A stretch of DNA of 64,000 bases from an uncultured Chloroflexia bacterium (GTDB lineage Bacteria > Chloroflexota > Limnocylindria > Limnocylindrales > CSP1-4). The DNA is taken from assembly GCA_963703155.1 (NCBI GenBank), contig OY969796.1, positions 3,509,875 through 3,573,874 on the forward strand, in the 5' to 3' direction. Position 1 is the first letter of the stretch. The number at the start of each line of letters is the position of its first letter. Below are positions 1 to 33,316 of this stretch, in pieces. The position numbers were made by a program, and so were the translations under genes. The notes beneath the pieces are model-generated. The model did no database searches and was not told where the DNA came from. It was given only the letters and a program-made list of their open reading frames with translations.

Positions 1-2852
1 GGATGATCGCCACCTCCACCACGAGGTCGTCGAGGTTCTGGGGGCGCGACTTGGGCAGCGTCTGCATCTGCGCCCGGCTCTCCACCTGGAAGACGCCCAC
101 GGTGTCGGCGGCCTGGAGCATCTCGAAGACCTCGGGGATCTCCTCGGGGATGCGGTCAAGGTCCACGCAGAGCGCGCAGTCGTGCTCGATGAGCTGGATC
201 GTCTCGTCGATGGCCGCGAGCATGCCCAGACCGAGCAAGTCGAGCTTGATCAGCTTCATCGTCTCGACATCGCGCTTGTCGTACTGCACGACCACGCGGT
301 CCTTCATGGTGGCGCGCTCGATCGGCGCGATGTCGATCAGCGGCGCCGCGGTCACGAGCATCCCGCCCGAGTGGATGCTGAGGTGGCGCGGGAAGCCGTC
401 GATGCGGGCGCACAGCTCGAGCCAGCGCTCCCAGTCCGAGAGGTGGGCGACCGAGCCGCGATGCTCCGGGCTCGCGCCGGCGGGCGGCACGGGCGGGTCG
501 AGGCGGGCGACGCTGCTGACGTGGTCGGTGCGGGCGCCGCGGGCGGCTCGTGCTTCGCCCTCGGCCTCCTCGCCCTCGCCATCGATCGGGCCATCACCGC
601 GGGGCGGGTCGAAGCGGCGGTCCTCCGCCAGCAAGATCCCGGTCTCCGGGTCGAGGCGTCGGGCGACGGCTTGGTCCAGCTCGCGCTTCGCCTCCCGGTA
701 CGGCGCCCATCGCTCGGTCCCCCGCGCGCGCGTCGTACCCGGTCCCGCGACCCGCCCGGAGCCAGGCGACGCTTGCTGGCGTGTCGCCAGGACCGCCCTT
801 GTCCCCGCCGGAGCCGCCGCTCCGAATGGCCGGCGCGGAGCCAGGCGCGCCGGCCCAGGTGCCGTTGCCTGCCAGGCCGTCGGCCTCCCGTCGCAGCGCC
901 GGTCGCGGTGTCGGCTCGGGCGATGCGGCAGCGGGCGCCGTCGCGACCTCGTCTGGCATCGACACCGACCCGCCCGGCGCCAGCAGACCGGTCCGGATCC
1001 GCCCACCGCGCGCGTGGTTCAGCTGCCCCATCGCGTCGGTGAGGCCGCGGGTCTCGGCGAGCGTGGCAACCGGACCGGGACCCAGCACGCCCGTGCGCCC
1101 GGGCTCGGAACTGGTGTCGGCGTCGGCTGACGCCCCGCCCTCGCCCGGCCGCGCGAAGAACTGCGCAAACCCGCCCTCGGTCTCGAGGTCGCGCCGGACC
1201 ATCACGCTGTCGTACGTCTCGAGCGCCTTCGCCACCCGGTCCACCAGCGGCCGCGGGAACCCCAGCGCGTACCCCACCTCGCGCACCGCCGACCGCGCCC
1301 GGTACGTGACCAGGTTGCAGACCATCCCCGTGTGCTCCGGCCCGTACTTGCGGTAGACGTACTGGATCACCTCCTCCCGGCGCTCGGAGCTGAAGTCGAT
1401 GTCGACGTCGGGGTAGGCCGTCCGCCCCTCGTTGATGAACCGCTCGAACAGCAGCTCGTGGCGGATCGGGTCAACCCGGGTGATCCCCAGCACGTACGCC
1501 ACGATCGAGTCCGCCGCCGACCCCCGGCCCTGCGCCGGGATCCGGCTGCGCTTCGCGAACTGCATCAGGTCCCAGCAGATCAGGAAGAACTCGGCGAGGC
1601 CCGTCTTCTCGATGACGTCGAGCTCGTGGGCCAGCTGGCGCATGACCTGGGGCGTGAACGGGTGGTAGCGGCGGCGCGCGCCCTCCCAGCACAGCCCAGA
1701 GAGGTGGCTGAACGGCGTCTCGCCCCTCGGCACCTCGAAGCCCGGGAAGCGGTACCGCTCGAAGGTCAGCGCCACGCGGCAGGCGCCGGCGATCTCGACC
1801 GAGTTCGCGATGCCCTCGCGCCAGCCCCGCGCCAGGACGGGGTCAGCGGCGGTGGTGGCCGGCTCGCCCGGCGGCAGGGCCAGCAGGTCGTCCGCGTCCT
1901 TGAGGTACGACTCGCCGTCTGGGCGGCGGAGCTCGCGCAGGTCGGCCAGCGTCCGGCCGTGGCGGACGGCGGTGAGGACGTCGTGGAGCTCGCGGCCGTC
2001 GGGTCGGGCGTAGTGGACGTCGTTGGTGACGAGGGTGGGCAGCCCCAGCTCGTCGGCCAGGCGCGCGGTCTCGGACGCGAGCCAGTCGTCATCGGGGAGC
2101 AGGTGGTGCGAGAGCTCGAGGACGAAGCCGGCCGCGGCCGCCGACGACGAGGGGCCCGAGGCCGATGAAGCCGAGCCCGATGAGCCGAACAGCAGTGCGT
2201 AGCGCTCGGCCGCCGCACGCGCCCCCTCGCGGTCGCCGGCCCGCAGGCGCCGCGCGATCTCCCCGTGCCGGCACCCGGACAGCGCCACCAGCCCCTCGGC
2301 GTTCGCCGCCAGCAGCTCGTGCGTGAACTTGGGGACCGCCTTGGTCCCGGCCAGGTTCGCCCGCGACACCATCCGGCACAGGCTCCGCCAGCCGGCCTCG
2401 TTCCGGGCCAGCAGCACCAGGTGAGGGCCGCGCTCCGCCTCGCCGATCCCCCGGTGGTCCTCTTTGCGCACCTCGCGGTGCCCGGGCAGCCGGGCACGCT
2501 CCGGCCGCGGCCGGACCGGACGTCCCTCGACCGGGAGCGGAAGCTCCGGCTGCGGCATCGGCCGGCGTTTTCCTGGGCGCCATGCCTGCCGCCCAGGCAC
2601 GGCGATCCCGCCCGGGTCCGGCACGCACGCGTCCAGCAGCTCGATCTCGATGCCGACGACCGGGTGGATCCCCGCGGCCTCCGCGGCGCTCGTGAAGCGG
2701 ACCGCGCCGTACAGCCCGTTGTGGTCGGTGACCGCCAGCCCGGCCAGACCCAGCTCGGCAGCCCGCTCGGCGATGTCGTCGGGAGCCGACGCCCCGTCCA
2801 GGAACGAGAAGTGGGTGTGGCAGTGCAGCTCGGCGAAGGGGATGGTGGCCAC
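1..2852 (-). CDS. dnaE2: Error-prone DNA polymerase III alpha subunit DnaE2/ImuC, 5' two-thirds; the gene continues past the window start. The reading frame changes between about nt 600 and 1260 (frameshift or low-complexity insertion)
   Basis: ORF 594..2852 starts MATIPFAELHCHTHFSFLDGAS...LAVTDHNGLYGAVRF (PHP domain, DnaE2-type N-terminus). The minus-strand frame ending at nt 2 encodes ...DGFPRHLSIHSGGMLV...GVFQVESRAQMQTLPKSRPQNLDDLVVEVAII (polymerase catalytic region), but in a different frame from 594..2852. A LexA box lies 30 nt upstream of the ATG at 2852. Confidence 0.85.
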
Positions 2853-2882
2853 GCGTCGGTCTCCGGGGGCGGAGGCGAATGC

Positions 2883-2898
2883 TAGAACAGATGTTCTG
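2883..2898. promoter_or_regulatory. LexA (SOS, Cheo-type) box TAGAACAGATGTTCTG in the divergent dnaE2 / gyrI-like intergenic region
   Basis: GAAC-N4-GTTC palindrome. An identical half-site architecture recurs at 9226-9241 upstream of imuA'-imuB. Confidence 0.65.
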
Positions 2899-2999
2899 TT
2901 TCAGCAAATGCCAAAGGCCTCTGGCAGGCGCCACGCGAGCCCTCGAGGATCACGCGAGCGGCGGTCGCCACGGGGTGCGACAGCCCGAGGAGGCGTGCG

Positions 3000-3482
3000 A
3001 TGGAGCACGAGATCCATGTCACGGACCGGCCCGCGCTGCGAGTCGTCTCGAAGCGCGTGTCAGTCGCAATCGAGCTCATCGGGCCGACGCTGGGCCAGGC
3101 GTTCGGCGAGGTGTATGCGCTCATCGGCGCCGCCGAGGCAGAGGCGGCCGGTCCGCCGTTCGTCATCTACCACGCAATGCCGGCGCCGGGTCAGCCGATG
3201 AACATCGAGATCTGCGCGCCGGTCAGCGGCTCGCTTGAGCCGCACGACCCGTGGCGCCTCGTGGACCTGCCGGCGGGCACGTTCGCGACCCTGAAGCACG
3301 TCGGTCCGTACGACACCGTCGAGGCGACCTACAGCGCTCTGACCGCCTGGATCCCGGACCACGGGCTCGCCATCGCGGGGCCGCCGCGCGAGGTGTACCT
3401 GAGCGAGCCGTCCACGCCGCCCGAGCTCATCGAGACCATCGTCGAGTTCCCGGTGATGAGGCTGCCGGTCGCGGTGGGCTGA
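3000..3482 (+). CDS. GyrI-like (SbmC / AraC effector-binding fold) small-molecule-binding protein
   Basis: 160 aa, ...PPFVIYHAMPAPGQPMNIEICAPVSG... is typical of the GyrI-like domain. Divergent from dnaE2 across the LexA box. Confidence 0.7.
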   Translation: MEHEIHVTDRPALRVVSKRVSVAIELIGPTLGQAFGEVYALIGAAEAEAAGPPFVIYHAMPAPGQPMNIEICAPVSGSLEPHDPWRLVDLPAGTFATLKHVGPYDTVEATYSALTAWIPDHGLAIAGPPREVYLSEPSTPPELIETIVEFPVMRLPVAVG

Positions 3483-3506
3483 AGGCGCGGTGGGCTGAAG
3501 GCGCGG

Positions 3507-4223
3507 TCAGGTCTGGCGGACCTTGATCCCGAGCTGGGCCGCCAGGAGGGGTGCGAGGCCGATCAGCTGCTCAGGCGTCACCGTGGCGCCGCGCAGGCCC
3601 TCAACGCCGCGGACCGAGCCGATCGAGGCACCGGTGAGGTCCGTGCGGAGAAGCCGCGCCCCGGTCACGTCGAGCAGCTCGATCTCGCAGCCCTCGAAGG
3701 AGAGGTCGCGGGCCTCGACGGTGCCCAGGTCCAGCTCGCCCATCACGCATCCGTCGAACGCGACGCCGGTGAGCTTGGCGCCGGAGAGGTCCACGAGGTC
3801 GAGACGTCCGCCGCGGACACGCACCGACGTCCACGAGCCGCCGGTCGAGAGCAGCGCTCCCACGCGCCGGACGGTGACCAGCGTGTCGCGCCAGACCGAG
3901 TCGGCGGCGTCGAGGCTGGCGGCGCCCAGCTCGTCGAGTCGGCACTCGGAGATCCGCGCCCGCCGCATCGACACTCCGTCCAGCGCGCACCGCTCGATGT
4001 GGCAGCCGAGGAACGCGGCGTCGTCGGCGGCCTGACCCGCGAAGTCGAGGCCGGCGAAGTGCACTGCGTCGTAGTCGCCGTTCGCCTCCAGGCCCAGCCC
4101 CGTGAAGGTGGTGATCGTGTCGGGCAGGGCCACGTCGCGCGGCGGCTCCTGCCTGGCCGTCGGCTTCGCCCTCGACGTGGTGGTCAGCGATCCGCCGCGC
4201 TTCGCGCCCTCCGCCGGACCCAC
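3507..4223 (-). CDS. Pentapeptide-repeat protein (MfpA/Qnr-like DNA-mimic family)
   Basis: A(D/N)LxG-type pentapeptide repeats run through the ORF (…LDFAGQAADDAAFLGCHIERCALDGVSMRRARISECRLDELG…). GTG start 1 nt after the stop of the upstream HAD gene. Confidence 0.8.
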   Translation of the reverse strand: MGPAEGAKRGGSLTTTSRAKPTARQEPPRDVALPDTITTFTGLGLEANGDYDAVHFAGLDFAGQAADDAAFLGCHIERCALDGVSMRRARISECRLDELGAASLDAADSVWRDTLVTVRRVGALLSTGGSWTSVRVRGGRLDLVDLSGAKLTGVAFDGCVMGELDLGTVEARDLSFEGCEIELLDVTGARLLRTDLTGASIGSVRGVEGLRGATVTPEQLIGLAPLLAAQLGIKVRQT

Positions 4224-4224
4224 C

Positions 4225-4887
4225 TCAGGCCGCCTCGACCACGACGTCCTCGAGCGAATCGATGAGCAGATCCGCCCCCGCGCTGATCAGTGCGGGCCCC
4301 ACGCCTGGCCGGTCGGGCACGCCCACGACGAACAGGCCGGCCGCCCGCGCCGCCCGGACGCCCACGGGCGAGTCCTCGAACGCGATGGCGTGCTCGGGGT
4401 CAGTCGAGAGCAGCCGGCAGCCCTCGAGGAACACGGCCGGGTCGGGCTTCCCGGCCCCGAGGTCTGATCCGGACGCCACGATCTCGAACGCGTCGAGGAG
4501 CCCCACGCCGCGGAGCGCGAGCTCAACCAGCGGCGTTGTGGTGGATGTGGCGACGCCCAGCCGCACGCGCCCCACCAGCGACCGGACCAGCTCCGCCGCC
4601 CCGCGGTGGAGCGGCGCGCCGGCGAGGTACTTGGCGCGCATCAGGTCGAGCAGCTCCGCCTCGATCATTGCGGGGTCCATCCCGCCGAGCCGCTTCGAGT
4701 AGGCGCGGGCGGAGTCGGGGAGGGCACGGCCGTGGCTGGCCTCGCGGTCGGCTTCGGTCAGGTGGTCGCCATGGCGGGCGAGCAGCTCGGCTTCAGCCTC
4801 GATCCAGAGGGGCTCGGAATCGAGCAGGAGGCCGTCCATGTCGAACAGGACGGCGCGAAAGCGGCGGGGCAGGACGAGCGCGGTCAC
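4225..4887 (-). CDS. HAD-superfamily hydrolase, subfamily IA (beta-phosphoglucomutase-like)
   Basis: Motifs LFDMDGLLLDSE ... GKPDP ... FEDSPVG. Proposed GTG start at 4887 with a TACAAT -10-like hexamer 7 nt upstream (leaderless). The ORF remains open to 4995. Confidence 0.7.
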   Translation of the reverse strand: MTALVLPRRFRAVLFDMDGLLLDSEPLWIEAEAELLARHGDHLTEADREASHGRALPDSARAYSKRLGGMDPAMIEAELLDLMRAKYLAGAPLHRGAAELVRSLVGRVRLGVATSTTTPLVELALRGVGLLDAFEIVASGSDLGAGKPDPAVFLEGCRLLSTDPEHAIAFEDSPVGVRAARAAGLFVVGVPDRPGVGPALISAGADLLIDSLEDVVVEAA

Positions 4888-5000
4888 GTCCGGGGATTGT
4901 AGCGGTGGTCTCTTGGGCCTCCGACAGGCCCGAGCCAACGTGCTTGGGCCAACAGAGGCGCGAGCGCCACCAACCGCGCGCCTTGCGCGTCTCACGCGGC

Positions 5001-5132
5001 GTGGTCACCCAGTTCCAGCAAATCCTCGCCCGCCGACCTGTCCTGGACCTCGTGTTTCGGGTGGTGGCGATTGCGCTGCTCGCGCTGCTGATCCTCGTGG
5101 TTCTCCCCGCTCTGGCGACCTTGGCCGGCTGA
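5001..5132 (+). CDS. Possible third copy of a small hydrophobic single-TM peptide (43 aa, GTG start, no SD)
   Basis: ...ILARRPVLDLVFRVVAIALLALLILVVLPALATLAG*. Same R-R-x-x-D + ~20 hydrophobic architecture as the peptides at 5899 and 6221. The coding strand is uncertain. Confidence 0.3.
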   Translation: MVTQFQQILARRPVLDLVFRVVAIALLALLILVVLPALATLAG

Positions 5133-5301
5133 GCCGGCGACCATCTCCACGATGACTTCCTCGCGGCGGCGGCCGCAGGCGATGGCGGCCGCCGACCTGG
5201 CCCGACCGGCCGTGGGCCGGCGGACCGTGACTCGGACCCCCGTTGACCCGTCAGCGGGGGTCCCTCCTTGCACGGCGCGGTGCGAGGGCTACGATGCGGT
5301 C

Positions 5302-5877
5302 ATGCGATCCGTCTTGCGCCCCGTCGTGCGCCCCGTCGTGCGCCCCGCAATGGCGCTCGCCCTCGCCCTTGCCCTCGGGGCGTGCTCCGGGTCGCCGGCC
5401 GCTTCGCCGGCTGCCGGGGCAGCCCAAACGCCCGCCGCCTCGACCGGCGCTCGCACGACGGAGTCCGGTGCGGACTCGCCCGCGCCGGACGCGAGCGCTA
5501 CGGCCCCGCCTGCGCCCGTCACGACACCGGTCAGCACCACGCAGACGCCGTGGGGCCGGATCGTCGACGCCGTGCCGGCCGCCTTCCCGGTCTTCCCGGG
5601 CGCCACGGTGGCCGACGCGCCGCCGGACGGCGCGGTCAGCGGGGCGTGGGTGTCGAAGGCGTCCGTGTCCGAGGTCGCGACCTGGTATCACGACGCGCTC
5701 CTGGCGGCGAAGTTCGCCAAGGTGGATGTCGGCAGTGCGCTCGAGGACGGATCGCGAGTGATTGACGTCCAGGGCGACCTTCCCGAGTGCAAGGCGCAGG
5801 TGACGGTCAAGCCGCAGAAGGATTTCACGATGATCAGCGTTCTGGTCGGCGCCGGGTGCGCTGGCGCGAGCGGTTGA
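5302..5877 (+). CDS. Lipoprotein (signal peptide + lipobox LALGAC), Ala/Pro/Thr-rich linker
   Basis: MRSVLRPVVRPVVRPAMALALALALGACSG.... The N-terminal 12-bp tandem repeat (5316-5346) encodes VRPVVRPVVRP. Confidence 0.7.
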   Translation: MRSVLRPVVRPVVRPAMALALALALGACSGSPAASPAAGAAQTPAASTGARTTESGADSPAPDASATAPPAPVTTPVSTTQTPWGRIVDAVPAAFPVFPGATVADAPPDGAVSGAWVSKASVSEVATWYHDALLAAKFAKVDVGSALEDGSRVIDVQGDLPECKAQVTVKPQKDFTMISVLVGAGCAGASG

Positions 5878-5898
5878 CGAGCCAGGAGGACGAAGTCG

Positions 5899-5997
5899 AT
5901 GGAAGTCCGCTCGCGCGACGTCGTCGCGGCCGGGGCGCTCACGGTGGTGCTGGTCGTGCTCGTGGTGATCCTGGTCGTGAGCTCGATCGGGCGCTGA
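5899..5997 (+). CDS. Small hydrophobic single-TM peptide, 32 aa: MEVRSRDVVAAGALTVVLVVLVVILVVSSIGR
   Basis: Strong SD AGGAGGA 8 nt upstream of the ATG, which sits immediately after the lipoprotein stop. Very high GC3. Its stop lies inside the GC hairpin at 5993-6013. Confidence 0.5.
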   Translation: MEVRSRDVVAAGALTVVLVVLVVILVVSSIGR

Positions 5998-6013
5998 CGC
6001 TCGACGCGTCAGC
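5993..6013 (+). terminator. GC-rich hairpin (8-bp stem GCTGACGC / GCGTCAGC, 5-nt loop) overlapping the stop of the 5899 peptide ORF; no U-tract
   Basis: Perfect inverted repeat read directly from the sequence. Confidence 0.4.
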
Positions 6014-6497: not shown

Positions 6498-6746
6498 TCA
6501 GTCGTACAGGCGCTCCAGGTGCCACGTCCCGGCGAGGCGGTCCAGGTACACCAGCGCGAGCCAGCTGCGGCCGACCACCTTGAAGTAGTCGCGGGCGATG
6601 GGCTCGCGCCACCACGCCTCCTCCACGCGCCAGCGGTTGCAGACCTCCACCGGCTCACGGCGCCCGTTCCAGGTGATCGCGACGAGATGGCCGGCGTCAT
6701 CGAGCTCGGCGTCCACGGCCGGGTGCTCGCGCAGGAGGCGGGTCAT
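6498..6746 (-). CDS. Small Trp-rich hypothetical protein (82 aa) translationally coupled to imuB
   Basis: MTRLLREHPAVDAELDDAGHLVAITWNGRREPVEVCNRWRVEEAWWREPIARDYFKVVGRSWLALVYLDRLAGTWHLERLYD. Its ATG overlaps the imuB stop in an ATGA arrangement. Confidence 0.55.
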   Translation of the reverse strand: MTRLLREHPAVDAELDDAGHLVAITWNGRREPVEVCNRWRVEEAWWREPIARDYFKVVGRSWLALVYLDRLAGTWHLERLYD

Positions 6747-8113
6747 CGGGCGAACCGTGCCTTGCGGGTATCGGCCGGCGCCATCGGAACGGCAGGGCGC
6801 GCGTCGGCCGGCGCCACTAGGCCAGCCCGAGCCTCGCCGGTCACCTCGACCCCCGCCACCGGCCGCCACGCCCAGCGCTCCTCGGCAAGCAGCGCCTCGG
6901 GATCGCCCACCTCCACGCGTCGCACCCGATCAGCCCCGAACGCGATCGCGAGCCTGGCCAGCTGCCACTCCAGCCGCGCTCCCCGAGCGGCCTGCGGCGT
7001 GAACAGCGGCAGTTGCTGGCCGCGGGCCGCATCGACCAGCCCGAGCTCGAGCTCGAGGCGCGCCACGGCAGCCGGCGGCGGTGACCCCTCGAGACGGGCG
7101 AACAGCAGCCGCTCGATCGCCTCGGCATCCGCGGTGGGCTCGGGAAAGCGCTGCTCGAAGCGGAGCTCGGACGGCGTCCCGCGCCGCGCGAACGCCAGAT
7201 CGTGGCTGATCGCAAGGCGCGCCAGCCCCGCCGCCTGGCCCCGCGCCGCCAGCTGGTCCGCGAGCGTGGCCGACAAGCGCCGGAGGACGAACCGCAGCGC
7301 GTCGAGCCCCTCGGCGGGCGGGTCCAGCGGCAGCGCCAGGGCCATCCGCTCGGCCGCATGGCGCGGGCGGAACCGCTCCGTCTCCTCGCCGCGCGCTCGG
7401 GCGTGGAGCCGCGCCCCCTCGTCGCCGAATCGTGCGACCAGCGCCGATCGCGGCAGCTCGGCCACCGAACCGATGGTCCGCAGCCCGAACCGCGCTAGGC
7501 GCGCCCGGATGTCCGGGTCCTTGGTCAGCAGCTTCGCCGGATAGGGGGCGAGGAACTGCTCGTCGTCGCCCGGCGGGACCAGCATCGGCGGGCCGCCCGG
7601 CTCCGCATACGCGGCGGCGACCCCGGCCGCGAACCCCGTCCCGGCGATCCCCGCATAGGACGGGCCGGGCAGCACCGGCGCCAGCGCCTCGACCATGCGC
7701 GCCACCAGCCGCTCCTCGACGCCCCACAGGCGCACCAGCCCATCGGCGTGGACGATCAGCCGGCCGAACGCCGGGTCCGACACGTCACTCGGCCCGGCGA
7801 TCCCGGGGCTGAACGTGGCGAGCCGCTCACAGGCGGCCTCGACCGCAGCCCGATCCTCGTCAGGCGCCGGGTCCAGGAAGACCGCCTCGGGCGCCATGCG
7901 GTGCGCCGACCCCAACGGGATCCCCCGCCGGACGCCGAGCGCCCGGGCGAGCGGATCTGCGTCGAGGACTGTCCCGTCCGTCCAGGGCTGCCCGCCAAGG
8001 ACGATCGGGCCGGTTGGCCACGAGCCGGAGATGGCGCCGCCCGCCTCGTGGCGAGCCCGGGCGAGGCGGAGTGGCAGGTGCGGCCAGAACAGGTAGAGCA
8101 GACGCATGGGCAT
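6743..8113 (-). CDS. imuB: ImuB, catalytically inactive Y-family polymerase-like mutasome subunit
   Basis: Starts MPMRLLYLFWPHLPLRLA.... The layout is Y-family/UmuC-like but lacks the catalytic acidic triad. Immediately downstream of imuA'. Confidence 0.8.
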   Translation of the reverse strand: MPMRLLYLFWPHLPLRLARARHEAGGAISGSWPTGPIVLGGQPWTDGTVLDADPLARALGVRRGIPLGSAHRMAPEAVFLDPAPDEDRAAVEAACERLATFSPGIAGPSDVSDPAFGRLIVHADGLVRLWGVEERLVARMVEALAPVLPGPSYAGIAGTGFAAGVAAAYAEPGGPPMLVPPGDDEQFLAPYPAKLLTKDPDIRARLARFGLRTIGSVAELPRSALVARFGDEGARLHARARGEETERFRPRHAAERMALALPLDPPAEGLDALRFVLRRLSATLADQLAARGQAAGLARLAISHDLAFARRGTPSELRFEQRFPEPTADAEAIERLLFARLEGSPPPAAVARLELELGLVDAARGQQLPLFTPQAARGARLEWQLARLAIAFGADRVRRVEVGDPEALLAEERWAWRPVAGVEVTGEARAGLVAPADARPAVPMAPADTRKARFAR

Positions 8114-8996
8114 CGATCGATGGGTGGGGGCCTTTCCGATCAGTAAGGGCGACGGGGCCGGGCGGGGCGGGCGGCTGGTGGGCGGGTGTCGCCGCAGACC
8201 CGGGCGGGGCCGACAGGGCGACGGGGCCGGGCGGGGAGGCAGGGCCCTCGAGCCCGGCGAGCAGCTCTGGGCGCCCGAGGCAGCCGTCCCGCGGGCCGCC
8301 CTCGGCGTAGAGGATGGCCAGCTCGGCGTCACGACCGGGCGGGCCATACCGGTTGCGCGCGACGGTGGCCCGGCACCGCTGCCCGACCACGTCCCGGCCC
8401 AGCCGGATCCAGCCTGAGCGGCGCAACTCGAGCCGCAGCCCGCTCGCCTCGTCCACCGCGGCCGCCAGCCCGCGACCCAACCCGTCGGGCGCCAGCACCA
8501 CGAGCAGCGTCCCCGCCCGCCGCGCCAGCGCCGCCAGCCGACCGAGCCGATCCCCCACCCGCGCCCCGGCGACCGCGGGGTCCCGGCCCTCGGGCAGGTC
8601 CAGCACCAGGAGGTCCACCGTGCGGGCGGCGAGCAGCGAGCCCGCCAGCCCCAGCGCCTCCTCGAGGTCCTGCGGTACGAGCACCACCAGCCACTCCGGG
8701 CGGACGCCGCGCGCCACCGCCTCCACGGGGTCGAACGCACGGGCGAGGTCAAGCCAGGCCACGATGGACCCGGCGGCCTGGGCCTCCGCCGCCACCCGCA
8801 GGGCGAGCGTGGTGCGTCCTGAGCTGGCACCTCCGCGGAGCGCCACGGTGGCCGAGCGCGGCAGCCCGCCCGTTCCCAGCACGGCGTCCAGCGCGGCGAA
8901 GCCCGTGGGGACCACCCGGCCGTCCTCGTGCGCGGCCACGCCCGGGCGTCCGGGCGCGAACGGGTTGCTGGGCGCTGGCGCCGGGGCGACAGGCAC
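7860..8996 (-). CDS. imuA: ImuA' (RecA/SulA-fold SOS mutasome subunit). The C-terminal ~110 codons are Pro/Ala-rich low complexity and overlap imuB
   Basis: ...VVPTGFAALDAVLGTGGLPRSATVALRGGASSGRTTLALRVAAEAQAAGSIVAWLDLARAFDP... resembles ImuA/SulA-like RecA-fold proteins. The first in-frame stop is at 7860. Confidence 0.7.
   Translation of the reverse strand: MPVAPAPAPSNPFAPGRPGVAAHEDGRVVPTGFAALDAVLGTGGLPRSATVALRGGASSGRTTLALRVAAEAQAAGSIVAWLDLARAFDPVEAVARGVRPEWLVVLVPQDLEEALGLAGSLLAARTVDLLVLDLPEGRDPAVAGARVGDRLGRLAALARRAGTLLVVLAPDGLGRGLAAAVDEASGLRLELRRSGWIRLGRDVVGQRCRATVARNRYGPPGRDAELAILYAEGGPRDGCLGRPELLAGLEGPASPPGPVALSAPPGSAATPAHQPPAPPGPVALTDRKGPHPSIDAHASALPVLAAPATPPRPGSPRGGRRHLRLVANRPDRPWRAALDGRDSPRRRSARPGARRPAGDPVGVGAPHGARGGLPGPGA
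8146..8235. repeat. 22-bp direct repeat AGGGCGACGGGGCCGGGCGGGG (8146-8167 and 8214-8235) inside the imuA' tail / imuB start region; encodes PPGPVAL twice
   Basis: Exact repeat seen in the sequence. Confidence 0.6.
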
Positions 8997-9225
8997 GAAG
9001 GCGGGAGAGGCGGAGGCGCGCGGGAGCCCAGCGTGACGGCCCCGCCCTCGGCTGCCATGGCTTCGGCCAGCTCGTCATCGATCGGCAGGGGCGCCACTGC
9101 GAGCGCGCCATCGACCACCGGCGCGGTGTCTCCCCAGCGGCGTGGAGCGGCCGCGCCCCAGCGTGCCTGGAGGGTGGCGAGGGCCTGGGAGACATCGGAT
9201 GCTCGGGTCATCGGACGTCTAATCA

Positions 9226-9241
9226 TAGAACGCATGTTCTA
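9226..9241. promoter_or_regulatory. LexA (SOS) box TAGAACGCATGTTCTA upstream of imuA'-imuB
   Basis: Same half-sites as the dnaE2 box (TAGAAC-N4-GTTCT). Overlaps the ATG of an alternative upstream ORF that starts at 9235. Confidence 0.65.
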
Positions 9242-9925: not shown

Positions 9926-11121
9926 CTAGCGCCGCGGACGCCCAGTCGCGGGGCTCGAGCCGGCCGGTGCCTCATGCTGGGCGCGCGACTCCGCAGGCTC
10001 CAAGCCCTCCATCGCCGGCGTCACCGGCTGCTCGCGGGCCTGCAGCCGCTCAAGGACCACCTCGAGGGCGGCCACGACCGGCACGGCGATGAACGCGCCG
10101 ACCAGCCCGCCAATGGCGCCGCCCGCCAGCAGGCTCGCGATCACGAGGAACGGCGAGATGCCCGCGGCATTGCCGACGACGAACGGCGCGAGGACGTTCC
10201 CCTCGATCGCGTGGATCACGAGGTAGGCGACGAACACGAACGGGAGGGCGTCGGGCTTGAGCGTGGCCGCCACGAGCAGAGCAGGGGCTGCGCCAAGCGC
10301 GGGGCCGACCAATGGGATCGCCTCGGCGACGCCCGCGATCAGCCCCAGCAGGACGGGCGACGGCAGGCCGAGCACCGCGCAGACCGACCCCACCATCACG
10401 CCCATCGCACCCATCAGCACGAGCTGTCCGCGGACCCAGCTGCCGAGCCTGAGCTCCACGCTGTTCCATGCCTCGTCGCACGCCGCGCCCGTCGATGCGC
10501 CGGGAGGTAGCTCAACGCGAACCGCTGGAGGCGCGCACGCTCGGTCATCCAGAAGAAGACCAGCGCGAGCACCGTGGCAAACGAGACGAAGGCGTCGGCC
10601 ACCGAATGGCCAGCCGCCAGGATCTCGGCCGCCGGCACGCCGTGGTTGCTCGACAGCGCGTTCTGCGCCGCGTCGATGAGCGCGACCAGCGCGGTGCCTA
10701 GAGCCCGCGGCGTCAGCGACGACGCCCATTCGCGAGCGTTCGTGAGCGCGGTCGGCACGGCGGCGCCGAGCTGGTCGGCTTGGGCGAGGGTGCCCGGCAC
10801 CACCAGCAGGACCAGGCCGGCGGCGACCGCGATGAACGTGATGTAGACGAGCAGGATCGCGAGGGCCCGCGGCAGGCCGAGGCGCCCGCGCAGGCTGCCC
10901 ACGAGGGGCTCGAGCGAGGCGCCCAGCAGCAGGGCGACGAACACGAGCAGGACCGCCCGGCCGGCTGCGACGAACCCCGCTGCGACGAGCAGGACCACCA
11001 GCGCGCCGAGCGCCGCGCCCGCGCCGCGCCGGAACCAGATGGCGAAGTCCGAGCGGGGCGAGGGGTCCTCGGGGCTGTCGGCGGCGATGGACGCGGGGTG
11101 GAGCGAGAGATCGGGGCGCAT
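9926..11121 (-). CDS. AI-2E family transporter (PerM/UPF0118), split by a frameshift near 10490-10500
   Basis: ORF 10414..11121 gives the N-terminal TM half (...FFWMTERARLQRFALSYLP). A different frame (9926..~10480) gives the conserved C-terminal half (...LGSWVRGQLVLMGAMG...GLIAGVAEAIPLVGPAL...). Confidence 0.75.
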
Positions 11122-11126
11122 GGCGG

Positions 11127-11537
11127 TCAGCGGCCTTCGCTGAGCGCCGCGAACTCCTCCTCGTGCTTCTCGAGCACCTCGTCCGTGGCGCGGTCCAGCG
11201 CGATGAACTCGTTCCTGGCCTCACCGATCGCGCGGATGATCTCGTCGAGCTTGAGCTGCGTGGCCTTGGCCTGGCGATTCGCGCTGGCCTGGATCACGAA
11301 CACCATCCAGAACGTGACGACGGTCGTCGTGGTGTTGATGAACAGCTGCCATGTGTCCGAGAAGTGGAACACCGGGCCTGTGAGCGCCCAGACGACTACC
11401 AGGGCGACGGAGCCCAGGAGGGCGGGGAGGGAGCCCAGCGCAACCGTGACGCGATCCGCGATCTGGTTGAACCACTCCCGCAGCGGCGTCTGCCGCGCAC
11501 CTGCAACGCCGGGCTCACCGGCTCTCACGCTTCTCAT
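11127..11537 (-). CDS. Small integral membrane protein (DUF1003-like), immediately upstream of the AI-2E gene
   Basis: ...WQLFINTTTTVVTFWMVFVIQASANRQAKATQLKLDE.... A 5-nt gap separates its stop from the AI-2E ATG. Confidence 0.5.
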   Translation of the reverse strand: MRSVRAGEPGVAGARQTPLREWFNQIADRVTVALGSLPALLGSVALVVVWALTGPVFHFSDTWQLFINTTTTVVTFWMVFVIQASANRQAKATQLKLDEIIRAIGEARNEFIALDRATDEVLEKHEEEFAALSEGR

Positions 11538-13856: not shown

Positions 13857-14650
13857 CCGCGAGGCGGGGCGCCCGTTGGCTGACGGGTCGCTCCCTCCCT
13901 GGCCCACGATCCTGTTCGACAAGGACGGCACGCTCATCGAGGACGTGCCGTTCAACGTGGACCCCGCGCGGATCCGCCTCGCCGCCGGTGCCGGGGCGTC
14001 ACTGCGCCGCCTGGCAGCGGCCGGGTTTGCGGCGGCGGTCATCACCAACCAGCCCGGCGTGGCACATGGCTACTTCACCCTCCGCGACCTGGACGCGGTC
14101 CGCGACCGCATGGCGGAGCTGCTCGCCGAGCAGGGCATGGCCCTCCGTGCGTTCTACGCGTGTCCCCACTTGCCGATGGGCTCGGTGACCGAGTTCGCCC
14201 TCGCGTGCCGACTGCCGCAAGCCCGGCGGCGGGATGGTCCGCCGAGCGGTCGAGGAGCTCGGGCTGGTGGCGGCCGACACGTGGATGGTGGGCGACAGCT
14301 GGGCCGACGTGGCCGCGGGCCGAAGCGTGGGATGCCGGACGCTGCTCGTGGGCCACGAATGGCTGCTAGGCGCGCTGCTGCCGCCGGGGCGGCGCCCCGA
14401 GACGGTCGCGCCGGACCTCGCCGCGGGGATCGAGGCGATCCTCGAGGACCTGCGCGTCACCGAGGATAGGCGCGAGCGCGGTCGCGCACAGCCGCCGGAG
14501 CCCGGACAGAACGGATCCGGCGCGGACGACGGCGGTCGCCGGGACCGGGAGCGCGCGATCTCTCGACCCTGGCGGGCGGCTGCTCCCGAGCGGGCGACCC
14601 CAACCCGCCTCACGCGACCCGCGCGCCGAGCCGATCGCGCAGTGCCCTGA
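13846..14650 (+). CDS. HAD-IIIA phosphatase (GmhB / histidinol-phosphatase-like) with a +1 frameshift near 14217
   Basis: TILFDKDGTLIED...ITNQPGVAHGYF...FYACPHLP in the frame from 13846, then ADCRKPGGGMVRRAVEELGL...WMVGDSWADVAAG in the frame of ORF 14234..14650. There is an apparent extra C in gcgtgcCgactgccgcaag. The start overlaps the stop of the GT4 gene. Confidence 0.65.
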
Positions 14651-21395: not shown

Positions 21396-22200
21396 ATGGC
21401 GACGTCGGCTCCCGCCGTCGTCTCACTGGACGACGTCACCTGTCGGTACGACGATCTCGTCGCCGTAGACGGCGTCACCCTCCAGTTCCCCGCCGGCGTG
21501 CTCGTGGGGCTGGTGGGGCCGTCGGGCTCGCCCAAGACGACGACCGTCCGCACGATGCGCGGGGCCGTGGCCCCAGCCGACGGAACGGTCAAATTGTTCG
21601 GCAACGACCCGCGGTGGATGCCCCAGCGAGACCGCAAGCGGCTGGGCTACATGCCCCAGCACTTCTCGCTGTCTCCCGACCTGACCGCGGAAAAGAACGT
21701 TGACTTCGTGGCCAGCCTGTTCGGGCTGCTGTTCCCAAGTGACGGCGGCGCACCCGCGAGGTGCTGCGGGCCGTGGACCTGTGGGACGTCCGAGGTCGGC
21801 GCGCCGACCGCCTCTCCGGCGGAATGCAGCGACGCCTCCAGCTCGCCGCGACCATGGTCCACGATCCGGACCTGCTGCTCCTCGACGAGCCCACCGCCGG
21901 GCTGGATCCCCTTCTGCGAGCTCGTGTCTGGGAGGAAGCGCGCCGGTTGCGCGATGCCGGCCGGACGATGCTGGTCACCACGCAGTACGTCGGCGAGGCG
22001 GAGGAGTGCGACATGGTGGCGCTGATCGTGGAGGGACGTCTGGCGGCCATCGGAACCCCAGATCAGCTGCGGGCTGAGGCCGTGGGCGGGGACCTGCTGG
22101 TCGTGCAGACGTCTCGCGAGGTCAGGGACGACGAGTGGCGCAGTGTGCCCGAGGTCAGGGCCGTGCGACCCATCGGGCCACGGCGAGTGCGCCTCACCGT
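21396..22200 (+). pseudogene. ABC-2-type transporter ATP-binding subunit, frameshifted near 21745 and lacking its normal C-terminus
   Basis: Walker A (GLVGPSGSPKTTTVRTM) in frame 0. LSGGMQRRLQLAATMVHDPDLLLLDEPTAGLD (signature and Walker B) in another frame. Confidence 0.65.
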
Positions 22201-22202
22201 GA

Positions 22203-22364
22203 CATCCGCCGCGCGCGCGCTCCCGCAACATCGTGCTGCTCCAGAACGCGATGCTCCGCGGGCAGCCCCAGCCAAGCTGGGAGATCGCTGCGCTCGGCGT
22301 GATGTTCCTGGTGTTCAGCCTGGCGTCCTGGCGGCTGGTGCGCCGGACGATTGCCCTGGCCTGA
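22203..22364 (+). pseudogene. C-terminal ~50-codon remnant of an ABC-2 permease fused behind the ATPase pseudogene
   Basis: ...NIVLLQNAMLRGQPQPSWEIAALGVMFLVFSLASWRLVRRTIALA* matches the ABC-2 permease C-terminus. No upstream permease body is present. Confidence 0.4.
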
Positions 22365-22485
22365 CGCCAGCCGCAATGCCGCTGCAATGCGGCGCTCCCG
22401 TCCCGAGAGCGGGGCAATGAACACGCAGGTGCATGCTGTGCATCACTGGCTGCGTGCAGCGCGGCCATAGTGCGAGGAGGGGTCC

Positions 22486-31319: not shown

Positions 31320-32083
31320 TTGCCCCTCCACGTCGGCACGTCGGGCTTCGACTATCCGGAGTGGGTCGGCCGGATCTACCCCCGGCGGCTCCCGGCGGGC
31401 GAGCGGCTGGCGTTCTATGCCACGCTGTTCCTGCGGTCGAGCTCAACGCCACCTTCTACCGGCTGCCAACGCGGAAGCAGTGCGAGCGGTGGGCGGCGCA
31501 GGTGCCGCCCGACTTCCGGTTCGCGGTCAAGGCCTCGCGCTACCTGACGCACGTGCTCCGGCTGCGGCAGCCCCACGAGGCCGTGGAGCGGATGCTCGAT
31601 CGCATCGAGCCGCTGGGCGACGCCTGGGCCCGTGCTCGTCCAGCTGCCGCCCGACTCCCCCTGGACGCCGAGGCGCTCGACGCCAGCTCGACGGCCTTCG
31701 ATGTCTTCGGCCCCGCCGGGCTGCGACGTCCGAAGTGCCGTGGAGCCGCGCCATGAGACCTGGTTCGTGCCCGAGGTCGAGGCGATCCTGCGGGACCACC
31801 GCGCCGCCCTCGTGCCGGGCGGACCGTCGCGGCCAGCGCTCCCCTGAGTGGCGCACGGCAGACTGGCGGTACATCAGGATGCACGAGGGCGTGGCGTCCC
31901 GGCGGGCTGCTACGACTCAAGGGACCTCACGCCCTCGCGACGCGGCTGTCGGAGGAGGGCACGGGCGCCACGGCCGACTGGGTCTTCTTCAACAACGACG
32001 GCCACGCCTGCGCGCCCGCCAACGCGCGCACGCTCAGCCGTCTCGCCGATCACGCCGGCTTCGAGGTCGTGGCGCCATCGTAG
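31320..32083 (+). pseudogene. DUF72 (UPF0759) family gene broken by at least four frameshifts
   Basis: Conserved DUF72 blocks lie in different frames: MPLHVGTSGFDYPEWVGRIYPRRLPAGERLAFYATLF | VELNATFYRLPTRKQCERWAAQVPPDFRFAVKASRYLTH | LVQLPPD...VEPRHETWFVPEVEAILRDHRAALV | SPEWRTADWRYIRMHEG | ...ATRLSEEGTGATADWVFFNNDGHACAPANARTLSRLA. Confidence 0.7.
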
Positions 32084-32619: not shown

Positions 32620-33316
32620 GCACTCTCAGGGACAGCGTGTCCGTGACTCGGTGACCAGTCGCGCGCGCCTCGGCGGGCTACCATCGCGCCAAGAGCGATC
32701 CCGCGACCCGCGCTGCCGACCCCCTCCCCCGTCCCCGCAATGAGGGCGTGACCACCGCTGGATCCCGCTCGCCCATCCACCGCGGCGCCCTGCGCGTCGG
32801 TCTGGGGCTGATCGCCTGGCTGCTCGTGATCAGGGACTCCGCGCCAAGGTCACCCTGCGATACCGCGCGGACCTGTTGCCGTGCTTCGTGGTGCTGGCGA
32901 TGGCCGGGCGGTACCGAGCGGCTGCACACGGGCTAGCTCGTGATCTCGCTCTCGCTGCTGGCATGACACCGCATCATGCCGGGTTTCGGCCCCGCGGCGG
33001 CGGACGCGAAGGGGCCCCACCGCGATGGTGTCGCCCGCCTGATGGTGCGGCTCCGAGACCGCCTCCGGGTGAGCGCCTCCGTCCGCGCGGCGAGGCCCCA
33101 AGAACGCCGGACGGCCAGAGGTGAGCCGCCGGCAGGTCGACGACCCGGAACGCCCGGGCATCGCCGAGTGCTGGCTCCGGCGGCGCTGCCCGCCCGAGCC
33201 CGAAGTGGATCGCGGAACTGACGTTCATCGTCCGATCCCGGCCGGGCGCCAGCTGCAGCACCCTGATGATCGGGATCAGGCGGATCCGTCGCTGAGTCTC
33301 ACGCACTCCGCGGGCA

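Follow-up and report, generated by a model that had tools for sequence, protein, structure and literature searches.

The DnaE2/ImuC mutasome has, to our knowledge, not been studied outside Proteobacteria and Actinobacteria. In a survey of DnaE2 proteins, Timinskas et al. (2014; PMC3919608) reported a variation in length that is linked to GC content, with extra sequence in the thumb and PHP domains in GC-rich genomes. With regard to the genomes in which relatives of the gene described here are found, the Microflora Danica (MFD) MAGs were obtained exclusively from Nanopore reads, assembled with Flye and subjected to one Medaka polishing round (PMC12313526).

In the present work, we analyzed a 64,000-nt stretch of DNA (the window), which begins within an error-prone DNA polymerase gene of the dnaE2/imuC type. 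The coordinates of this gene, of its surroundings and of other interrupted genes are compiled in Table 1.

Table 1. Features of the window; positions are given in nucleotides from its first base.
Feature	Position	Strand	Remarks
dnaE2/imuC-type error-prone DNA polymerase gene	2..2852	-	Pfam PHP, DNA_pol3_alpha, DNA_pol3_finger; NCBIfam NF004225
Conserved N-terminal part, frame A	1161..2852	-	PHP, palm with DVDIDF aspartates, first half of thumb
Hypervariable lineage-specific thumb insertion	463..1160	-	697 nt as assembled; 232 codons after removal of one base
C5 run (G5 on coding strand) with one surplus base	719..723	-	Removal of one base opens the frame
Stop codon closing the out-of-frame tail of frame A	594..596	-	Not the true gene end
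Conserved post-insertion part, frame B	2..462	-	End of thumb, second palm segment (FPRHLSIHSGG, KLDLLGLG), start of fingers
LexA-box-like palindrome GAACAGATGTTC	2885..2896	.	33 nt upstream of dnaE2 start
imuA-like gene (RecA fold, ORF 7860-8996) and imuB-like gene (Y-family fold, ~6743-8070)	6743..8996	-	Pfam RecA (partial), IMS; approximate boundaries
AI-2E transporter gene, break	~10480		Profile positions 6-180 and 179-325 in separate frames
gmhB-like HAD phosphatase gene, break	~14205		N and C parts in separate frames
ABC ATPase gene, break	~21745		Frame differs between profile positions 2-80 and 84-137
DUF72 gene, two or three breaks	31590-31950		Profile 16-81, 83-138 and 196-216 in alternating frames

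The gene is an SOS-type mutasome polymerase gene of the dnaE2/imuC type. Its translation starts with a GTG at 2852 and is truncated by the window edge after approximately 950 codons, compared to about 1500 in orthologues, and the GC content of the region (positions 1-6000) is 65-79% in 300-nt windows. The Pfam profiles PF02811, PF07733 and PF17657 follow each other over two reading frames in the order PHP, Pol III alpha core and finger domain. For either piece of the gene, NF004225 (error-prone DNA polymerase) ranked first or close to first among the models; since the gene is split and edge-truncated, the pieces reached 393.9 and 197.6 bits for a cut-off of 939. The closest relative, a full-length orthologue of 1513 aa (L001) which is 94% identical across the N-terminal 564 residues, scored 1054.7 bits on the same model and remained under the cut-offs of the replicative DnaE models. 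The N-terminal part could be aligned to E. coli alpha until residue 482-487 and to Taq alpha until approximately residue 525. The C-terminal third of the protein lies beyond the window edge; in a relative of 1463 aa that shares the insertion described below (P0128), HHH_6 and an OB fold were found.

Regarding the surroundings of the gene, the palindrome GAACN4GTTC was present at most 200 nt upstream of dnaE2 in 55 of 59 relatives. A second such box (9228-9239) heads the pair of imuA-like and imuB-like genes, which is encoded on the same strand as dnaE2 and 4-6 kb upstream of it. Both products scored under the cut-offs of the NCBIfam ImuA, RecA and DinB-type models, and dnaE2 is associated here with imuA-like and imuB-like genes whose family assignment comes from fold and context only. 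The cassette is not contiguous, with three unrelated genes keeping the imuB-like gene and dnaE2 apart. A third GAACN4GTTC box, at 33215 and upstream of a YceI-like gene, was discarded as a probable chance match.

A preliminary description of the window, made from its sequence, had stated that dnaE2 cannot be read in a single frame as assembled. This was borne out: frame A runs from 2852 to 594 and frame B is open from 1018 to 2. As had also been described, the frame A ORF (594..2852, minus strand; 752 aa) carries the DnaE2 N-terminus, with PHP and positions 2-185 of the DNA_pol3_alpha profile; frame B continues this profile (positions 183-260) and adds the beginning of the finger domain. All three catalytic palm aspartates, which we take to be the counterparts of E. 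coli D401, D403 and D555, were recovered in the motifs YPDVDIDF (frame A) and LIKLDLLGLG (frame B), aligned with those of the E. coli and Taq proteins. Thus, the frame break divides the active site between two frames. The assignment of the catalytic motifs to the second frame had been correct for FPRHLSIHSGGMLV and for GVFQVESRAQM; of the catalytic aspartates, that of KLDLLGLG is in the second frame as well, but the DVDIDF pair belongs to frame A. The motif IIRPG, also listed in that description, is absent from the window, where frame B ends with ...VVEVAII at nt 2; RPG was seen only in relatives.

The position of the break could be narrowed considerably. The distance from one conserved flank to the other is 697 nt (463-1160), a number not divisible by three, and both frames are simultaneously open only at 594-1018; a length of about 650 nt had first been given for the frame-ambiguous stretch. 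Within this stretch, the switch is confined to approximately 25 nt around 719-745, across which the codon-position GC goes from the frame A to the frame B pattern. The translation is ...WLRAGRGTGYDARAG in frame A and TERWAPYREAKRELDQAVARRLDPETGILL... in frame B; in relatives both motifs are found in one frame. When the C5 run at 719-723 was shortened by one base, 950 stop-free codons were obtained, reading ...GRGTGYDARAGTERWAPYRE..., and the family motif (H)GTERWAPYRE was recreated; any one-base removal between about 719 and 745 would restore the frame, too. On the coding strand, the switch is situated in TAC GAC GCG CGC GCG GGG G/AC CGA GCG ATG G (slash, switch), where the G5 run is preceded by (GC)n. 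In all four independent JGI metagenome contigs bearing both flanking motifs, the spacer was divisible by three (87-96 nt), and the stretch from GTGY to TERW comprised 4-14 codons among relatives. The break is a single-base indel at 719-723 inside a real insertion. A continuous frame matching the orthologues after a one-base correction had been named beforehand as the outcome that speaks against a truly unreadable gene, and it is the one obtained. The roughly 200 codons of G/P/A/R-rich text noted in frame A are present, but about 145 of them are genuine insert, and the out-of-frame part is limited to the final 43 codons or so (723 to 597).

A scan of species-representative genomes returned 80 related loci. 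Every one of these comes from a Chloroflexota MAG with the label Limnocylindria, Limnocylindrales or 'Chloroflexia'; both conserved flanks were present in 71 of the loci. The unusually long loop insertion that had been put forward as one of the possible reasons for the ambiguous stretch is real and, judging from these 71 relatives, typical of the lineage. Its size ranges from 68 to 575 codons (flank spacer, 204-1725 nt). It is placed at the equivalent of E. coli alpha residues 483-493 and, approximately, of Taq alpha residues 526-540, in a thumb helix-loop-helix whose loop comprises approximately 11 positions in the NCBIfam error-prone polymerase profile and approximately 11 residues in E. coli alpha.

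The comparison of these sequences supports an insertion that is real, in all likelihood translated and lineage-typical, because its length is mostly divisible by three (66 of 71 relatives, binomial p = 6e-26), because one motif is universal, because its codon-position GC follows the pattern of coding sequence and because its repeats are mostly in frame (period divisible by three in 79 of 92 arrays). All but one of the 66 in-frame inserts were stop-free, and every one of the 66 contained GGPGD(S/T/E) followed by S-x-x-W-L/I (motif GGPGD(S/T)PxSVxWLR). GLTDxMGQL was detected in 59 of the 66, and subsets carried GRGTGY, ERWAPYRE, DPESGxLxPxxRRxD and SSVARxEP. The corresponding motifs of the insert in the window are RGLTDAMGQLNHARGG, GTWAGAPGSAPAIRSGG..GGPGDTPASVAWLRAGRGTGY, TERWAPYRE, RRLDPETGILL and SSVARLDP. 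With regard to composition, Gly, Ala, Pro and Arg together account for 53% of the insert vs. 38% of the protein body, hydrophobic residues for 16% vs. 32%, and cysteine for 0.1% vs. 1.2%.

Since a large insertion at a fixed site within a polymerase is also what an intein or another mobile element would produce, the 650-700-nt stretch could be read in that way, and an intein search had been suggested in the preliminary description. This reading is scarcely credible. Matches to Hint, intein or endonuclease domains were absent in both frames, inserts at the same site range from 68 to 575 aa, the sequence is hypervariable, cysteine is scarce and hydrophobic residues are half as frequent as in the protein body, and the conserved motifs are short linear peptides rather than intein blocks A, B, F and G. 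An intein was rejected on the absent Hint domain, the hypervariable sequence, the minimum insert size of 68 aa and the scarcity of cysteine.

There is evidence for evolution of the insert by in-frame slippage of short GC-rich repeats. Tandem repeats were detected in 54 of 72 inserts vs. 6 of 72 control segments of equal length from the gene body; unlike most relatives, the insert in the window showed no tandem repeats above threshold. With the 5' half of the insert as the query, phmmer returned only 37 matches among 1.84 billion representative proteins. Ten of these hits were scanned for domains; the seven longer than 600 aa proved to be Pol III alpha proteins that carry the motif in the identical loop, and no Pfam match was found for the three short ones. 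An AlphaFold2 model of a 490-aa insert-bearing fragment (P0001; 33-sequence alignment) was too poor for use (mean pLDDT, 53.7; pTM, 0.27); local confidence peaks occurred only at the conserved motifs.

In the reading that we favour, the gene is an intact LexA-controlled dnaE2/imuC which, as do its orthologues in Limnocylindria, bears a long, probably disordered and hypervariable insertion at the tip of the thumb domain. This takes the place of the loop of about 11 residues and changes its size through in-frame slippage of short GC-rich repeats, and the conserved peptides might serve to dock a partner protein or DNA. As a tentative proposal, which we consider possible though rather doubtful, the insert could be a lineage-specific mutasome interaction module in which the universal acidic-GGPGD(S/T)PxSVxWLR motif and, with it, GLTDxMGQL, DPESGxLxPxxRRxD and SSVARxEP represent candidate docking sites. 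The partners may be the clamp, ImuB, the RecA-like ImuA or SSB, and a disordered tether, adjusted in length through in-frame repeat slippage, may present the sites. In a bolder version of this proposal, the repeat-prone tract may also serve as an on-off switch of the polymerase gene, operated by indels of a length not divisible by three.

As to the origin of the surplus base, the proteins of the window are encoded on one contig of 4,153,430 bp, and a single contig of this size implies long reads. We infer from this size and from the pattern of errors that the contig was sequenced with a long-read technology. The surplus base at 719-723 is, with high probability, a consensus indel error of such a long-read assembly and not a property of the organism; dnaE2 would then be broken only in appearance, by one surplus base of presumably technical origin in the coding-strand G5 run. 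This reading is favoured over a pseudogene because other genes of the window are broken as well, because breaks in the insert are associated with sequencing technology, because selection appears to be purifying after the break and because the LexA-type box is intact.

Concerning the first of these points, besides dnaE2, at least four conserved genes of the 64-kb window are frame-split within one Pfam profile (Table 1). A window-wide GC3 frame plot proved too noisy on its own, and candidate breaks were confirmed via the split Pfam profiles; most adjacent ORF pairs tested as candidate breaks turned out to be ordinary neighbouring genes. In the DUF72 gene, the breaks exceed the number expected from a uniform error rate, and some breaks in the genome may be real.

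Secondly, breaks in the insert were present in 6 of 37 Nanopore-only MFD MAGs vs. none of 34 others, mostly short-read (Fisher p = 0.016), an association that is based on small numbers. Some MFD MAGs were also broken in conserved parts of dnaE2 (L015, L042 and, twice, L032), and two short-read MAGs (L056 and L064) showed breaks elsewhere in dnaE2 and none in the insert. Further, several database proteins from long ENA contigs finish in out-of-frame text.

Thirdly, the codons after the break differ from those of L001 by 23 synonymous and 2 non-synonymous changes in 153 codons, which suggests purifying selection downstream of the break, with no sign of decay and with the LexA-type box intact. 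The relaxed selection or further lesions downstream that characterize a pseudogene were not observed, the one defect being the only one in 950 codons.

The opposite possibility is that the extra base is real, i.e. a recent +1 inactivation in a mutable, repeat-prone insert, in which case the gene would be a young pseudogene or the strain would have lost its mutasome polymerase. The spacer between the flanking motifs differs by indels among relatives, the source record annotates the frame A ORF as a 752-aa protein, the DUF72 gene of the same window looks heavily broken, and dnaE2 is also broken in the short-read MAGs L056 and L064. Nevertheless, we regard this explanation as unlikely, given the single defect, the predominance of synonymous changes after it, the intact LexA-type box and the presence of imuA-like and imuB-like genes, as well as the unrelated conserved genes broken within the same 64 kb and the restriction of insert breaks among relatives to Nanopore-only MAGs. 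The preliminary description had left an indel error and a pseudogene side by side; the former is now favoured and the latter disfavoured.

Some observations run against an assembly error. For a Nanopore error, a homopolymer of five G is short, and the GTGY-TERW stretch varies naturally in length, so a real indel of a size not divisible by three could arise there. Searches in other data gave little additional material. The strain-specific pattern across the break had no match in the JGI metagenomes, and a near-identical read-through fragment was not found among the proteins listed, all of which were shorter than 565 aa and did not include the ORF of the window itself. A search for contigs encoding the 752-aa ORF returned none, and for the neighbouring gene only a Logan contig of 1450 nt was retrieved, which belongs to run ERR11594405 and encodes the identical 160-aa protein.

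It could also be argued that the break is bypassed or exploited in the cell, by a programmed +1 ribosomal frameshift, by transcriptional slippage or by slipped-strand phase variation of the mutasome polymerase. The site is a G5 run after (GC)n, the nine unpaired breaks of the Nanopore relatives all share the +1 sense, for which we have no explanation, and breaks are about eight times denser per base in the insert than in the rest of dnaE2. A mechanism of this type is nonetheless very improbable, since the breaks of relatives occur at non-homologous positions and no shared slippery motif was found, since 66 of 71 relatives and the four metagenome contigs require no shift, and since insert breaks are absent from the short-read MAGs. 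A G5 run is, moreover, too short for efficient phase variation. Programmed ribosomal frameshifting was rejected because a homologous conserved shift site was not found in relatives, the broken ones breaking at differing places.

With a one-base consensus error as the most likely reason for the unreadable mutasome polymerase, the frame break in itself holds no biological lesson. The 752-aa protein on record for the contig would be an artefact, to be replaced by one DnaE2 of approximately 1450 residues, and the contig needs indel correction before claims are made on pseudogenes or completeness. What the comparison does offer is an SOS-controlled error-prone polymerase in which, throughout one class of soil Chloroflexota, the tip of the thumb shows a repeat-driven, motif-bearing expansion of 68-575 residues. 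The invariant GGPGD peptide provides a testable candidate for a partner-binding site.

When compared to indel errors of Nanopore-only MAGs assembled with Flye and Medaka (PMC12313526, PMC9262707), the window shows the same scattered single-base breaks in conserved genes of a multi-megabase contig, with similar breaks in the Nanopore MAGs of relatives. It differs in that several of its breaks are outside long homopolymers and in the uniform +1 sense of the breaks in relatives. With dnaX, in which programmed frameshifting gives rise to Pol III tau and gamma, dnaE2 has in common that a replication-related gene is distributed over two frames; however, neither a conserved slippery site nor a stimulatory structure is present here, and relatives are in frame.

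The DnaE2/ImuC mutasome is the system to which the locus corresponds most closely, with PHP, polymerase core and fingers in the same order, a close orthologue over the family cut-off, imuA-like and imuB-like genes nearby on the same strand and a LexA-type box upstream. In contrast, the thumb loop, of about 11 profile positions in that family, comprises 232 residues in the window and between 68 and 575 across the lineage; further, the cassette is interrupted and the imuA-like and imuB-like products do not reach the NCBIfam cut-offs. Finally, the gene resembles those of the earlier survey (PMC3919608) in belonging to a GC-rich genome and in having extra sequence in the thumb and the PHP domain, whereas a hypervariable, repeat-driven insert with conserved short motifs was not described there, a size of up to 575 residues is extreme, and the survey predates the availability of Chloroflexota of this class. 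The insert is an extreme, motif-bearing case of the known GC-linked length variation of DnaE2, which earlier surveys noted but did not explain.

Among the related loci from Chloroflexota MAGs (Limnocylindria), unpaired frame breaks in dnaE2 were found in several Nanopore-only assemblies (L015, L029, L032, L036, L042, L043 and L068). All nine of these breaks were mended by the removal of one base and none by an addition. Three of the breaks in this set of relatives fell within a single locus, L032. Several of the nine lay outside homopolymers: L043, for instance, has gained an A, and L032 shows a difference of 13 nt.

Further split genes were detected in the window, and their coordinates are collected below together with those of the other features.

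Frame-split genes, palindromes and the imuA-like/imuB-like pair in the window
Feature	Position	Strand	Remark
gmhB-like HAD phosphatase	13900-14647	+	break near 14205; motifs in two frames
AI-2E family transporter	9929-11293	-	break near 10480; Pfam PF01594 in two frames
ABC transporter ATPase	21400-22417	+	break near 21735-21755; PF00005 in two frames
DUF72 gene	31430-32080	+	alternating frames; profile positions 16-81, 83-138, 196-216
RecA-fold imuA-like ORF and Y-family-fold imuB-like ORF	6743-9235, approximate	-	
GAACN4GTTC palindrome, LexA-box-like	2885-2896		directly upstream of dnaE2
GAACN4GTTC palindrome, LexA-box-like	9228-9239		directly upstream of imuA-like/imuB-like pair
Third GAACN4GTTC match	33215-33226		upstream of YceI-like gene

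In the phosphatase, the first frame reads LFDKDGTLIED...ITNQPGVAHGYF...YACPHLP and the next DCRKPGGGM...MVGDSWADV; the break appears to reflect a surplus C in TGC[C]GAC. The two transporter genes carry breaks of the -1 kind. For the AI-2E transporter, profile positions 6-180 were assigned to ORF 10417-11220 and positions 179-325 to ORF 9929-11293, while in the ABC ATPase one frame holds positions 2-80 (the Walker A half) and another positions 84-137 (the signature and Walker B half). At least two to three breaks were counted within approximately 450 nt of the DUF72 gene, a density above that seen elsewhere; this gene may be a real pseudogene or may lie in a locally poor stretch of the assembly.

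With regard to the LexA-box-like palindromes, the one upstream of dnaE2 is conserved: of 59 relatives, 55 have it, at about position 4800-5010 of loci L001-L080. The third match is probably due to chance. The imuA-like and imuB-like ORFs overlap by several hundred bases in different frames, where a further frame break may be involved, and the start ATG of an 830-codon ORF in this region is located inside the LexA-like box.

A sub-clade of the thumb-loop inserts of dnaE2 contained a further conserved peptide, GQLNTRxPLVGKVPPWRQPPKPxDPxAPRPFAWL, carried by loci L040, L068 and L077 and by seven proteins (P0001, P0002, P0005, P0010, P0013, P0017 and P0028). It occurs alongside the GQLNHARGG version in L040 and L077, and replaces that version in the seven proteins.

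A second lineage-typical extra segment was noted in the PHP domain of DnaE2, at residues about 71-130 (window about 2430-2640, minus strand), and a Ser/Ala-rich stretch, GSSGSASSASGPSSSAAAAG, lies beyond it in the same domain. The extra segment of the window DnaE2 comprises approximately 50 Pro/Arg-rich residues, for which Taq alpha has no counterpart.
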